Made by a program: the position numbers and the translations under genes. Shown piece by piece: positions 516-7,831 of a stretch of DNA of 7,831 nucleotides. How positions within the stretch are numbered: position 1 is the first letter of the stretch; every line of letters begins with the position of its first letter. The notes below the pieces were generated by a model. The model had not been told where the DNA came from. It ran no database searches and was given only the letters and a program-made list of their open reading frames with translations. Source of the stretch: Octopus sinensis (Eukaryota); the NCBI RefSeq assembly GCF_006345805.1, contig NW_021828734.1, positions 1 through 7,831 of the forward strand, read 5' to 3'.

Positions 516-548
516 GTGTGTTCGTGTGTGTGTGCTGTACTTATATAT

Positions 549-679
549 ATGGGGAAAGTTTACGAAAAAAAAACAAAAGACGAAGACAGGTGGTGTACAA
601 AACAAACAGATGTATTAGTATAACGCTCAGGAATAGAAAAAGTCTTTTACATTTCGAGCCTACGCTCTTACACAGACAC
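549..679 (-). mobile_element. Interspersed repeat in TA tracts, probable Penelope-like terminal remnant
   Basis: 551-617 is homologous to 6590-6653 (acaaaagacgaag[a/g]caggtgg...aaaacaaac...tgtatta). The minus strand of 641-679 reads gagc-gtag-gctc-GAAA-tg-TA, resembling the 3' half of a hammerhead. Confidence 0.5.
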
Positions 680-2638: not shown

Positions 2639-3350
2639 GACTTGAAGAACAGAGGCACTTATATGTGCAAAAGAAGAATAAGCTTTGCGGACAAACTATG
2701 GGAAGTGCAAAATTGAGAAAACAAACCGAGAGTGACAAATGTAGAATGTGTGAGAGGAGTGAAACGGCATGGCACATTGTTAGTAAAAATTCGGAATTGA
2801 CACAACGGAATACACAACGGTGATATGACAATGAGCCATTGGGAACTTTGTGGAAATTATGACCTAGAAAGATCAAAGACTTGGTATGACTAACTCCCAG
2901 AAGGAGTTAATGAGGATGAGGATTGCAAAATACTGTTGGATGCAATGATTCGGTGTAACCATCAAATTAGACATCGGAAACTTGACATTGTTATGGTGGA
3001 CAAAAAAACAACTTGTATGATAGTCGACATAGCTTGTCCCGATGACAACGTGTTCAAGGAGAAAGAAGAAGAAAAACTGAACAGCTATGATAATCTGAAG
3101 TGGGAAATAAGCAAACTGTGGACAATAAAGAAAGTGGACGTACCAGTGCCCAACTACAAAAGCGACTGAAAAAGTCTGGAACAAGTATAAAAATAGAACA
3201 CCCATAAAAATCATCATTGCTTGGAACTGAAAGAGTTCTCCGAAGGGTTCTTGAAGCATGATCAGTAAACAAGTGTCACCTTTGTCTGCTGGCTGTGGAC
3301 AGCTGACTCTTTCCAGCATACCCAGCATAATAAGCTGTGAGTTTTCATAT
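2639..3350 (+). mobile_element. 5'-truncated, decayed R4/Dong-like non-LTR retrotransposon (zinc knuckle, restriction-like endonuclease, 3'UTR)
   Basis: Translation across frameshifts: TEALICAKEE*ALRTNY; SDKCRMCERSETAWHIVS (CCHC knuckle from 2740, last Cys lost); R*YDN (RHD motif); KTWYD*LPEGV; RHRKLDIVMVDK..TCMIVDIACP..KEEEKLNSYDNL (PD..D RLE core, PD mutated to LD); LLGTERVLRRVLEA* (stop 3259-3261). Flanked by (TAA)n on both sides, the known Dong target. Confidence 0.9.
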
Positions 3351-3439: not shown

Positions 3440-3450
3440 CAACAACAACA
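3350..3450. repeat. (TGA)(TAA)n(CAA)n microsatellite
   Basis: Directly visible. Confidence 0.95.
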
Positions 3451-3727
3451 TCACTGGAAACACAGGTGTTTCGTTCAACATCCTTAAACAACCCTTATCT
3501 AATGACCTTTTGAGCTACTCAGCCTGAAGAAAATTCTAACTGGGCCCCACCGGCAAAGTCTTGCACTGTTTATCTTGATACGGGATCACCATGTCACGCA
3601 CATATGGTTGTGATGCATGTGCCTGGTGTACCATTATTAGATGGGTAGTCATGATGGGTATATTGGGCTTCGTATATTTCTACCCCAGTGTCACTTTGAT
3701 GGCATGCACTACTCTCGCACTCAATAA
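3451..3727 (+). mobile_element. Non-coding TAA-associated retroposon, copy 2 (more 5'-truncated)
   Basis: Direct-orientation homologue of 2196-2478, e.g. shared gcacatatggttgtgatgcatgtgcctggtgtacc. Same 3' end, different 5' start. Confidence 0.8.
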
Positions 3728-3980: not shown

Positions 3981-3995
3981 AATGATAATAATAAT
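3941..3995. repeat. (TAA)n microsatellite
   Basis: Directly visible. Confidence 0.95.
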
Positions 3996-4360
3996 TATGA
4001 AATCAACATATTATCGGGAAAGAAAGAGAAAAGATTGATAAATATGGAGACCTGAGAAATTAGATCGCTAAGATGTCGCAGCTACGAGAGTCAAACATAA
4101 AGGATGTCCCTGTTGTCATCGGAGCATTGAGTTCAATACATCCAGCCGGAGAACGTCTGGAAACTTTAGAAATACTCTACAATCTAGGTGTATTGCAAAA
4201 ATCGACATTACATGGAACTGCACGCATATTGCGTAAAGTACTGTCTGAGGTCCTTGTTGTGACCTGACAGACAGTACAAATCCCCCGTAGACACAATGTC
4301 TTCAATCAACAACATCACGATATTGGATGCTGTGCAACATCTTAAATAGAAATAATAATA
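3996..4360 (+). mobile_element. 3' end of a second, distinct R4/Dong-like retrotransposon
   Basis: KEREKIDKYGDLR / IAKMSQL..VPVVIGALSSI..LQKSTLHGTARILRKVLS is the typical RLE C-terminus, paralogous to 3060-3260. The 3'UTR is different and ends in aaataataata. Confidence 0.85.
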
Positions 4361-4509
4361 GTTTCAAATATTGGCACAGGGCCAGCAATTTTTAGAGGAT
4401 AGGATTCCTCGATATCATTAACCCAGTGCTTAACTGGTACTTTATTTTATTGATCCAGAAAAAATTAAAACAAAGTTTCCCTCAGCCGGATTTGAACTCT
4501 TAACGTAAT
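4361..4509 (-). mobile_element. Degenerate tRNA-SINE copy, same family as 4799-5358, inverted
   Basis: Reverse complement reads ttacgttaagagttcaaatccggctgagg...aaagtaccagttaagcactggg, matching ~4862-4950. Confidence 0.8.
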
Positions 4510-4554: not shown

Positions 4555-4798
4555 GTGCTGTCCCTACTCACTCAAGGCATCGTTCTGAGTTTTCTCTTGT
4601 TTGTCATAATGTCAAACACAAAAATAAAATCTGTCTCACTCGGCAGTTATATAGATAACACCAAAGTAATACGAAATATGAGAACAAATGACAGTGTCTA
4701 TGTCCTACAAGAAAATTTCGATCCCTTCCGCCCCGCATATACAACAGATTGAATGACGATAATACTTCGTTCAACTCTACAATATTCCATGTCTTCAA
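4555..4798 (+). pseudogene. Highly decayed reverse transcriptase fragment of an APE-type LINE (CR1/L2/Jockey group)
   Basis: TQGIVLSFLLFVI...SYIDNTKV...LQENFD corresponds to PQG.VLGPLLF...YADDTK...LQ.DLD. A shifted frame continues IYNRLNDDNTSFNSTIF, corresponding to W...N.M.FN..K. The catalytic YADD has decayed to YIDN. Confidence 0.65.
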
Positions 4799-5358
4799 GG
4801 CGGCGAGCTGGCAGAAACGTTAACACGCCGGTCGGAATGCTTAGCGGTATTTCGGCTGCCGTTACGTTCTGAGTTCAAATTCCGCCGAGGTCGACTTTGC
4901 CTTTCATCCTTTCGGGGTCGATTAAATAAGTACCAGTTACGCACTGGGGTCGATATAATCGACTTAATCTGTTTGTCTGTCATTGTCTGTCCTCTCTGTG
5001 TTTAGCCCCTTGTTCTGAGTTCAAATTCTGCCGAGATCAACTTTGCCTTTCATTCTTTCGGAGTCAATAAATTAAGTACCAGTTGCGTACTGGGGTCGAT
5101 GTAATCGACTTAATCCCTTTGTCTGTCCTTGTTTGTCTCCTCTATGTTTAGCTCCTTGTGGGCAATAAAGAAATAAGAAACGTTAGCACACCGGGCGAAA
5201 TGCTTAGCGGTATTTCGTCTGTCTTTATGTTCTGAGTTCAAATTCTGCCGGCGTCGACTTTACCTTTCATCCGTTCGGGGGCGGTAAATTAAGTACCAGT
5301 TGCGTACTGGGGTCGATCTAAAAATTTCGAGCCTCGTGCTTAGATCGGAGAAGAAAAG
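4799..5358 (+). mobile_element. Trimeric tRNA-derived SINE composite (units ~4799-5011, ~5012-5176, ~5177-5358)
   Basis: Head ggcggcgagctggcagaaacgtta (A-box-like). The block gttctgagttcaaatt(c/t)..gccg..gtcgactttgcctttcat..aagtaccagtt..actggggtcgat occurs three times. A-rich tail. Probable TSD at 4781-4798 and 5359-5377. Confidence 0.9.
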
Positions 5359-5771
5359 AATATTCTATGCCTTCCAATGTGAAAATAGGATTCCCACCGA
5401 AATGTTTTACCTTGATTCCGAACAGGGAAAATAGCACAAGACTTTGACTCCCTTCATAACTCTTGTATATCTGAAGATATATATTTCGCTAGACCAGCGA
5501 TTTCAAACGGAACACAGCGGATTTTAAATATATAATTCCATGTTTTAAAAAAGCCATATTAATGCTGGAATCTCTTGAAAAACATGTGAATTATAATTTC
5601 GTTATATACAAGGATATATATTTTCTAATTAAAAGAAAAAAAAATCCAACATTTTTTTTTCCTTTCAACTTTCTGTACGAAGTGCAACAAGAGTTTCATG
5701 TTCCTTGTAGAGTGTTGTATGGACTCATAATTACTGAGAACTGCTGTTCTAAATACAATCGCAAAGTGGCA

Positions 5772-5843
5772 ACAAGCATGGCTGTGTGGTGAAAACTCGC
5801 TTTGCAACCATGTGGTTTCGAGTTCAGTTCCAATGAATAATAT

Positions 5844-5897
<54 letters not shown>

Positions 5898-5985
5898 ATG
5901 TATATGTATGCATGTATATGTTGTGTGTTTGTCTGTGTTTACCATGCCCCGTACAGTTCACAGTCAGTGGTTCGATAAAAGATAC
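5772..5985 (+). mobile_element. Fragmented tRNA-SINE: head 5772-5835, (TA)n expansion, 3' body remnant ~5920-5985
   Basis: A-box TGGCTGTGTGG (5779-5789) and B-box-like GAGTTCAGTTC (5820-5830). Downstream gtgtttaccatgccccgtac...gtggttcgataaaagatac resembles the recalled family body. Confidence 0.6.
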
Positions 5986-6050
5986 ACACACACACACACA
6001 CACACACAGACACACACACAAAATATATATATATATATGTGTGTGTGTTA

Positions 6051-6119
<69 letters not shown>

Positions 6120-6160
6120 TATATTATTTATATAATGTATATATATATATATATATATAT
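5836..6160. repeat. (TA)n/(CA)n/(TG)n microsatellite cluster
   Basis: Directly visible. Confidence 0.95.
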
Positions 6161-6293
6161 AAGAAAATAGTAAAGAGTGAAAAAACGACAGAAGGCTTAA
6201 ATGTTAAAAAATATATATATTTGTGTCAAAATGTCTGGAGAATATCGAAAAATTTTTTTCCTTTCCTTAAAATGACATAATTTCATAATTTTT

Positions 6294-6333
6294 AAAGAAA
6301 TACCGGTTTCGCGTGTAGCTTTTCAAATTTCTT
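6294..6333 (-). ncRNA. Mirror copy of the hammerhead motif with one extra U before the core
   Basis: Minus strand reads aagaaa-U-UUGAAAA-gcuacacgc-GAAA-ccgg-UA-uuucuu. The 1-nt insertion may disrupt the stem I register. Confidence 0.5.
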
Positions 6334-6334
6334 G

Positions 6335-6376
6335 TGAAGAAATTGAAAAGCTACACGCGAAACCGGTATTTCTTTA
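6335..6376 (+). ncRNA. Putative minimal type I hammerhead ribozyme, U3-A8 core variant
   Basis: Stem I (ug)aagaaa 6335-6342 with uuucuu(ua) 6369-6376; core UUGAAAA 6343-6349; stem II GC-uacac-GC 6350-6358; GAAA 6359-6362; palindromic stem III ACCGGU 6362-6367; GUA cleavage triplet ending at 6368. Confidence 0.7.
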
Positions 6377-6546
6377 AAATTATGAAATTATGTCATTTTA
6401 AGGAAAGGAAAAAAATTTTCCAATATTCTCCAGACATTTGACACAATATATATATATTTTTTAACATTTAAGCCTTCTGTCGTTTTTTCACTCTTTACTA
6501 TTTTCTTATATATTCACCCACGTGCTTTACCAAACAAACTTTCTTA

Positions 6547-6548
<2 letters not shown>

Positions 6549-6588
<40 letters not shown>

Positions 6589-6658
6589 ACGGGAAGCTTT
6601 ATGAAAATAGACAAAAGACGAAGGCAGGTGGAAAACAAACGAACATTGTATTACATAC

Positions 6659-6741
<83 letters not shown>

Positions 6742-6785
6742 TATATATATACATACACACATATATACATATATACATACATAGA
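6549..6785. repeat. (TA)n microsatellites enclosing a short interspersed repeat fragment (6590-6653)
   Basis: TA runs are directly visible; 6590-6653 is homologous to 551-617. Confidence 0.9.
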
Positions 6786-6788
6786 TTT

Positions 6789-7170
6789 GGAGGCGAGGCG
6801 CAATGGCCCAGTGGTTAGGGCATCGGACTCACGGTCCTAGGATCACGGTTTCGATTACCAGACCGGGCGCTTTGAGTGTTTATTGAGCGAAAGCATCTGA
6901 ATCTCCACGAGACTCCGGCAGTGGGTGGTGAACCCTGCTGTACTCTTTCACCACAACTATCTCTCACTCTTTCTTCCTGTTTCTGTTGTACCAGTATTTC
7001 AAAGGGCCAGCTTTGTCACACTCTGTGTTACACTGAATCTCCCCGAGAACTATGTTAAGGGCACACGTGTCTGTGGAGTGCTCAGCCACTTGCACGTTAA
7101 TTTCACGAGCAGGCCGTTCCATTGATCGGATAAACTGGAACCTTCGTCGTCGTAACCAACGGAGTACCAC
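6789..7170 (+). mobile_element. Near full-length tRNA-derived SINE (head loosely tRNA-Arg-like) with (ATAC)n tail to ~7222
   Basis: A-box TGGCCCAGTGG (6804-6814), B-box-like GGTTTCGATT (~6847-6856), ~300 bp GC-richer body, then a simple-repeat tail. Confidence 0.8.
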
Positions 7171-7299
7171 GATACATACATACATACATAGATACAAACA
7201 TACATACATACATACATACATACGAAATATTTTTGGAAATTTTGTCCCCAACTTTAAGAAAGAGTGTAACAAATGAGTAATGTAAGGTACTGCACTTAA

Positions 7300-7375
7300 A
7301 AATATTTGTTCGATGAAACCCTTTAGAGCAGTGCCCCAGTATAGCCGCAGTCCAATGAATGAAACAAGTATAGGG
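7300..7375 (+). mobile_element. SINE 3' tail fragment
   Basis: gcagtgccccagtatagccgcagtccaatgaatgaaacaagta is the inverted homologue of 7633-7690. Strand is taken from the recalled family consensus. Confidence 0.7.
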
Positions 7376-7632
7376 TATATACTTCCTCCAGCATTCTAAA
7401 GTGAAGACCCTAAAGTATGTAATATACACAAGTCCCAGCGGTTATGGCCTCTGTCTGTAATTTGTTTTCTTTTTCTTGAATACTTTTTGCAATCTGTCCA
7501 GTTGGTAGATAAGTCCTGGGATGTCATGATGTGATAACTGTTGGAAATATGGGACTTCCAGAGGATAAACATCACTGTTGTGTCTCTCACAGTAAATGTT
7601 TTCACTACCAAACATGCTCTTTAAACTTTTAC

Positions 7633-7690
7633 CTTTTACTTGTTTCAGTCATTGGACTGCGGCCATGATGGGGCACCGCCTTGAAAAGGG
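7633..7690 (-). mobile_element. SINE 3' tail fragment, inverted
   Basis: Reverse complement aaggcggtgccccatcatggccgcagtccaatgactgaaacaagtaaaag matches ~7325-7373. Confidence 0.75.
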
Positions 7691-7831
7691 TATAGACCCC
7701 GGTTTTTATGTACGCGTCCACCCCGGTATTTATGTAAGGTAGTGCCAGATCTCAATATTTCCTTCCTAAAACACTTGCATCAAGAACTTACTCAGTAACT
7801 GTTTGACTTGTTCATAACTACACAACGGCCT

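Follow-up and report, generated by a model that had tools for sequence, protein, structure and literature searches.

We analyzed a 7,831-nt stretch of Octopus sinensis DNA (contig NW_021828734.1; hereafter the window) and found, inside a TA repeat, a 359-base palindrome with a minimal hammerhead motif on each strand, adjoining its centre. The palindrome is very probably a relic of the pLTR type found in Penelope-like elements (PLEs). We favour, with somewhat better than even confidence, the reading that it is a dead, heavily 5'-truncated PLE pLTR insertion whose two arms arose by fold-back during integration. The window as a whole consists of AT-rich repeat DNA of animal type, in which several interspersed repeats accompany arrays of (TA)n, (AAT)n, and (ACT)n. 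In the Atlas search, the leading cluster was most frequent in Mollusca, the phylum being recorded for 3 of its members. The features of the palindrome and its borders, in window positions, are the following.

6023-6161, no strand: left (TA)n array, likely insertion target (6155-6161 may be target or element)
6155-6333, minus strand: left arm (179 nt), a tail-less copy of the putative pLTR end in inverted orientation
6295-6333, minus strand: hammerhead copy, predicted fold of -4.9 kcal/mol
6333-6328, 6327, and 6326-6320, minus strand: its stem I 5' strand, an extra T, and its core
6319-6311, 6307-6302, 6301, and 6300-6295, minus strand: its stem II, ACCGGT, A17, and stem I 3' strand
6326-6344, no strand: perfect hairpin at the very centre (8 bp, loop of 3 nt), predicted DNA fold of -4.1 kcal/mol on either strand
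6334-6336, plus strand: spacer GTG, of which 6335-6336 lengthen plus-strand stem I to 8 bp
6335-6376, plus strand: minimal type I hammerhead, U3-A8 core variant (descriptor scan, shuffles, and folding)
6335-6342, plus strand: stem I 5' strand, 8 bp
6343-6349, plus strand: core TTGAAAA, the U3-A8 variant
6350-6358, plus strand: stem II, GC/TACAC/GC, 2 bp
6359-6361, plus strand: GAA (the GAAA box is 6359-6362)
6362-6367, plus strand: palindromic ACCGGT (helix III)
6368, plus strand: A17, in a GUA triplet, with the predicted cut between 6368 and 6369
6369-6376, plus strand: stem I 3' strand
6337-6513, plus strand: right arm (177 nt), the putative pLTR end in direct orientation
6514-6548, plus strand: 35-nt AC-rich extension on one arm only, likely a Penelope-type tail
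6545-6588, no strand: right (TA)n array, likely insertion target

A first-pass annotation of the same DNA had described a palindrome of about 360 bp with arms of about 178 bp around a 3-nt spacer, and the alignment agrees with it: the arms 6155-6333 and 6337-6513 flank GTG and are identical in 174 of 180 columns (96.7% identity by blastn), the differences being two transitions and four single-base indels. The transitions lie at right-arm positions 6420 and 6422, and one of them sets a CpG in the left arm against a CpA in the right, the kind of change that real decay would give. All four indels fall in homopolymer or TA runs and could stem from slippage or from sequencing error. We assigned the spacer to the right copy because two of its three bases extend plus-strand stem I. 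The ends were also as annotated, with a continuation of about 35 bp on the right arm (6514-6548, 35 nt) that is missing from the left and with (TA)n at both ends of the palindrome (arrays at 6023-6161 and 6545-6588). The left arm runs into (TA)n at a TATATAT common to both arms (6507-6513 and 6155-6161), which may be part of element or target. No target-site duplication other than TA was found around the palindrome, and the (TA)n on both sides hides any TA duplication.

The plus-strand hammerhead motif exceeds chance. A strict descriptor applied to both strands of the window gave a single match, at 6335-6376 on the plus strand; 500 dinucleotide-shuffled versions of the window yielded 0 matches, and 20,000 arm shuffles yielded 2; with a stem I of at least 6 bp, the count was 0 in 20,000 arm shuffles. 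The motif has the core boxes TTGAAAA and GAAA (with the U3-A8 variant allowed), an 8-bp helix I closing the core, a palindromic helix III in the form of ACCGGT, and GUA as the NUH triplet. Helix II contains the G10.1-C11.1 pair and is just 2 bp long. Cofolding predicts a homodimer in the form of a double hammerhead held by an intermolecular ACCGGU helix, at -19.9 kcal/mol versus -6.2 kcal/mol for one monomer, and the monomer fold is no better than those of shuffles (z of -0.99). The predicted folds also pair U3 with A17. Pairing of C3 with G17 in hammerheads inhibits cleavage, and by analogy the predicted U3-A17 pair would do so as well. The 2-bp stem II and the predicted pairing of U3 with A17 make catalysis by this motif, real as it is, doubtful. 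Rfam covariance models gave no hammerhead family among 56 matches (E up to 1), nor among the four matches obtained with 6325-6400 (E up to 10). A match to MIR7807 (63 bits versus a gathering score of 90) merely reflects the hairpin and was rejected.

Like the palindrome, the minimal hammerheads of metazoan PLEs have type I topology, the G10.1-C11.1 pair, and a palindromic helix III (PMC4209133), and the same source describes in metazoan PLEs both the use of a palindromic helix III for cleavage as a dimer and the occurrence of opposite-strand pairs. The U3-A8 core corresponds to the Cercyon variant of Schistosoma (PMC4209133). Among the 56 motifs in Fig. S3 of that paper, the shortest stem II is 3 bp, in contrast to 2 bp here, and U3 occurs in 3 of the 56, with G, U, and U at position 17, where the octopus motif has A. 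An A at position 17 is common in the Hydra, Neptune, and Naiad clades, which also share the TA target (PMC8557442). The hammerhead of Hydra-1_Obim differs in sequence from the one described here, with a C3 core and a 7-bp stem II (PMC8557442), and the matches listed when three arm motifs were compared with the Hydra, Naiad, and Chlamys consensus sequences published in the supplement of PMC8557442 lay in unrelated contexts.

The annotation had further placed an outward-facing ribozyme motif on each strand. This stands in full for the plus strand; the minus-strand copy is present on its own strand, with an extra base before the core. A match to it requires tolerance of a 1-nt slip or of two mismatches in the core; its stem I has 6 bp, and the single inserted nucleotide, at 6327, separates stem I from the core. 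The claim that the apex adjoins the 5' strand of hammerhead stem I is borne out, since stem I begins at 6335-6337.

Several other repeats occupy the window. A second PLE-like 3' fragment (545-676, minus strand) sits in (TA)n/(TG)n, ends in a TA run, and has a decayed hammerhead with a 4-bp stem II hairpin, a GAAA box, and a predicted stem I, the first core box being degenerate. Its upstream part is replaced by (TG)n near the predicted stem I. It folds with the topology of the palindrome hammerhead and belongs to a different family, and the descriptor scan missed its hammerhead even with two core mismatches. A shorter sister of this fragment (6589-6652, minus strand; 79% over 66 nt) lies tail-to-tail in the (TA)n array that closes the palindrome and stops short of the hammerhead. 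Broken frames on the plus strand at 2700-3260 and 3990-4250 adjoin (AAT)n and contain a CCHC-like knuckle and restriction-like endonuclease motifs; we take them to resemble the 3' end of non-LTR retrotransposons. They gave no Pfam match, and a protein search with a LINE-like frame gave 0 of 63 candidates. Two copies of a 285-nt repeat (2194-2477 and 3450-3725, 85% identical) end in (AAC)n-like runs beside trinucleotide arrays. A SINE-like repeat at 4795-5321, partly tandem with a 146-nt period, recurs at 1640-1662, and an inverted SINE-like fragment about 350 nt upstream of it (4422-4508) could pair with it in a transcript; the SINE-like repeats are presumably octopus SINEs by their look. The plus-strand element at 6795-7223, in which a tRNA-like head and an (ATAC)n tail enclose about 330 nt, is presumably a tRNA-derived SINE, and the ARAGORN tRNA scan gave 0 genes. 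Finally, a 60-nt inverted pair (7318-7377 and 7630-7691, 82% identical, about 250 nt apart) may be either a pair of SINE pieces or the terminal inverted repeats belonging to a small DNA element.

The Penelope-like reading of the palindrome, already made in the first-pass annotation, is well supported by its anatomy and by the literature. PLE insertions have an adjacent, inverted, 5'-truncated copy, a tail of 30 to 40 bp, and a preference for (TA)n or microsatellites (PMC8557442). Here, an adjacent head-to-head inverted copy and a junction palindrome are present, a tail of 35 nt, within the published range, occurs at one end, and the hammerhead core starts 205 nt before 6548, within about 100 to 250 nt of the 3' end; in the (TA)n-targeting PLE clades, too, the hammerhead lies about 100 to 200 nt from the 3' end (PMC8557442). 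Nearly the same sizes occur in Pen2a_Av of Adineta vaga, with a pLTR of 218 bp, an inverted copy of 181 bp, and a tail of 31 bp, against 212-215, 179, and 35 in the octopus locus (PMC3846280). Pen2a_Av, Pen2_Av, and Pen3a_Av likewise have head-to-head pLTRs, a junction palindrome, and a tail at one end; in contrast to the octopus locus, where the direct copy is the pLTR end alone and the insertion sits in (TA)n, the A. vaga copies extend into an ORF or captured gene, with target duplications of 8 to 10 bp (PMC3846280). The right arm holds a TA run (6447-6458) and a TCACT (6488-6492) that weakly resemble the TATA and Inr motifs of Pen2a_Av (PMC3846280). By analogy with these insertions, the locus is structured like an inverted-pLTR PLE insertion of putative PLE membership.

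The 35-nt extension likely belongs to the element, as suggested by its length and by a weak similarity to the 3' end of the 545-676 fragment, with which its end shares an 8-mer (1,166 of 100,000 shuffles; a weak, post hoc comparison). In PAc, the Poseidon element of Anolis, two RT start sites bound the tail, and the uncleaved RNA is the dominant RT substrate (PMC11167929). AC-rich tail bounds, an AT-rich target, and a ribozyme read through uncleaved are traits of PAc to which the octopus locus compares (PMC11167929). The PAc ORF starts in stem II (PMC11167929), whereas the ATGs at 6382 and 6390 of the palindrome open just a short frame, for which protein searches gave no homologue.

The 394-bp element lacks an RT plus GIY-YIG ORF and in this differs from an autonomous EN+ Penelope-like element; neither RT nor GIY-YIG sequence was found anywhere in the window. 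Five of five peptides gave no Pfam family, the 41-aa arm peptide had 0 matches among 1.84 billion representatives, and further protein searches gave 0 of 3 candidates and, in the Atlas, a best score of 0.76; a PLE ORF start inside the arm was accordingly rejected. As expected, there was no meaningful match of the arm or core to mobile or cellular prokaryotic DNA: there was one weak 41-nt match in plasmids (E of 4e-3) and none in phages or prokaryotic genomes. Non-LTR retrozymes are, like the palindrome, non-coding, hammerhead-bearing, and PLE-related (bioRxiv 10.64898/2026.07.22.740005). They are, however, head-to-tail tandem units, while the palindrome is one head-to-head pair (bioRxiv 10.64898/2026.07.22.740005), and no further copy of the arm was found in the window, either as a tandem array or as a direct copy. 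Taken by itself, the locus most likely represents a truncated Penelope-like insertion of the ordinary sort, with its inverted pLTR and tail, and today it is most likely without function.

The position of the apex bears on how the arms arose. The predicted cuts, between 6368 and 6369 and between 6301 and 6300, lie about 33 to 35 nt from the palindrome centre. With the predicted cleavage site about 33 nt downstream of the apex, the palindrome is not a cleavage product, and an inversion at that site was ruled out, the cores being complete in both arms. The retention of the whole core in both arms also argues that the template was uncleaved at the ribozyme, in agreement with the preference of the Anolis PLE protein for unprocessed RNA (PMC11167929). 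Fold-back through stem I itself was ruled out as well, as the core would then remain in a loop and be present only once. By our estimate, the chance that an apex falls within a few bases of some landmark in a 200-nt repeat is several per cent or more. In Penelope of Drosophila virilis, the intron's 3' end coincides with helix I's 5' end (intron 416-491, hammerhead position 3 at 496; PMC4209133), and by this comparison at least one PLE has a real landmark at the 5' boundary of helix I. Penelope-13_HM resembles the octopus locus in having an antisense hammerhead within an inverted 5' copy; that copy spans nt 1-966, with the hammerhead listed at 102, far from the junction (PMC8557442). Opposite-strand hammerhead pairs in Schistosoma are about 100 to 700 bp apart, in contrast to cores that start 17 nt apart here (PMC4209133). 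In a literature search covering mostly papers outside subscription, we found no published report of palindrome apexes aligned with hammerhead stem I. The kind of structure is already known, and novelty would be limited to the position of the fold beside the ribozyme, provided that this position recurs.

In the fold-back that we favour, an RT/GIY-YIG protein acting in trans would have nicked (TA)n and primed cDNA at 6548, the distal end of the tail. The RT would then have passed through the uncleaved ribozyme, a step suggested because the entire core is in both arms, and synthesis would have stopped where stem I has its 5' edge, near 6334. The new strand would have snapped back via the 8-bp hairpin with a 3-nt loop at 6326-6344, a candidate primer by its predicted fold, and then been copied. 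Copying would have stopped at the internal TATATAT (6507-6513) and joined the (TA)n opposite, leaving the tail on one arm only, and repair or replication would have turned the hairpin into a palindrome. We prefer this course because one stop explains the near-zero spacer and the apex has an 8-bp hairpin, and also because that hairpin's edge is where the arms are offset by one base; the offset is possibly a priming scar, and the three other indels allow chance. A single stop at stem I is sufficient for the symmetry of the arms. In the head-to-head inverted pLTRs of A. vaga, junction palindromes have been attributed to self-priming, in that proposal on an antisense template (PMC3846280). The annotation had attributed the inversion to a fold-back or template switch at the ribozyme boundary. 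The fold-back half of that claim fits the published self-priming; a causal role of the ribozyme is unsupported because there is a single case, the apex is not the cleavage site, and the junction of Penelope-13_HM is far from its hammerhead.

The same end structure could result from priming on two strands or from a later switch at the DNA level. In the former case, which we hold to be unlikely though the best placed of the alternatives, a dimeric PLE protein would nick both (TA)n strands and prime two cDNAs, one from each tail-defining start site, and both would pass through the uncleaved ribozyme, stop at the 5' edge of stem I, and be joined head to head. The Anolis protein does cleave and extend both strands, has two tail-bounding starts, and is a predicted dimer (PMC11167929), and the landmark at helix I in D. 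virilis Penelope (PMC4209133) and the 545-676 fragment, which also yields to a microsatellite near its predicted stem I, are consistent with a hard stop there. At stem I, no more than 3 nt separate the arm ends, as such a stop would have it, but two coincident stops are then required instead of one, and the arms differ by just two substitutions. Other pairs speak against a stop at the ribozyme, given the spacing in Schistosoma (PMC4209133) and the distant junction of Penelope-13_HM (PMC8557442), and the 6589-6652 fragment ends before any hammerhead.

Similarly unlikely, and next in order, is that a solo pLTR fragment came first and that its inverted arm was made afterwards, by template switching during replication, which would have entered from the left (TA)n through the self-complementary TATATAT (6507-6513) and come back at the 5' end of the fragment. 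Arrays of (TA)n are unstable, the left arm stops precisely at the 7-nt TA microhomology, and a short hairpin sits at the apex, all of which suit such a path. Against it, no host flank is duplicated, and a 35-nt tail with a head-to-head layout is a recurrent PLE signature (PMC8557442, PMC3846280).

A more specific role for the ribozyme, to which we give little credence, would make the 5' edge of stem I, and not the cleavage site, a fixed stop or joining point in this PLE family through double-hammerhead RNAs and a dimeric RT. Two template RNAs joined by ACCGGU would feed a dimeric RT priming from both nicked strands, the RT would stop at stem I, and the cDNAs would be joined head to head.

The two remaining explanations are very improbable. 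A foldback or MITE-type DNA transposon, almost all terminal inverted repeat and inserted at TA, would account for the long inverted repeats, the 3-nt spacer, the TA flanks, and the lack of coding capacity, but not for an asymmetric 35-nt extension or a complete PLE-type hammerhead motif beyond chance, and we know of no transposase family whose termini resemble the palindrome ends. A fold-back chimera or assembly artefact fits four of the six arm differences, which are single-base indels in runs such as long-read errors give, yet it is disfavoured because the flanks (5300-6160 against 6514-7400) have no inverted match after simple-repeat filtering, both sides returning to unrelated sequence whose complementarity is confined to TA repeats; the pair of transitions, including one at a CpG/CpA site, and a tail of published length are likewise not what it predicts.

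A read-through RNA spanning 6155-6548 is predicted to fold as one hairpin at -245.6 kcal/mol (z of -43; 0 of 100 shuffles as stable), and the pair probability of stems I and II is 0.0 in it, versus 0.80 to 0.98 in 6334-6400. In a transcript of one arm (6334-6548), the probability of the ribozyme helices is also about 0, so that they form in the short 6334-6400 context only. The computation thus upholds the earlier suggestion that the ribozyme is sequestered in a read-through transcript. On these models, the locus, if transcribed through, would form a long hairpin with neither ribozyme folded; action of Dicer or ADAR on it, and extrusion of a cruciform from the DNA, are plausible. Lizard Penelope repeats undergo heavy editing, and predicted double-stranded RNA is abundant in octopus (PMC5625713); palindromes of this kind could enlarge the pool of editable double-stranded RNA.

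The function of PLE hammerheads has been stated to be unclear (PMC8557442), and hammerhead cleavage is dispensable in vitro (PMC11167929). Were the 5' edge of stem I to act as the fixed stop or joining point of paired templates, the ribozyme would serve without catalysis, as a scaffold for pairing and as a boundary element; this would account for inverted pLTRs and explain the unclear role of these hammerheads. If the apexes and 5' ends of the family pile up at the 5' edge of stem I, they would provide a cheap genomic test of the origin of inverted pLTRs and, at the same time, of a non-cleaving role of the ribozyme.
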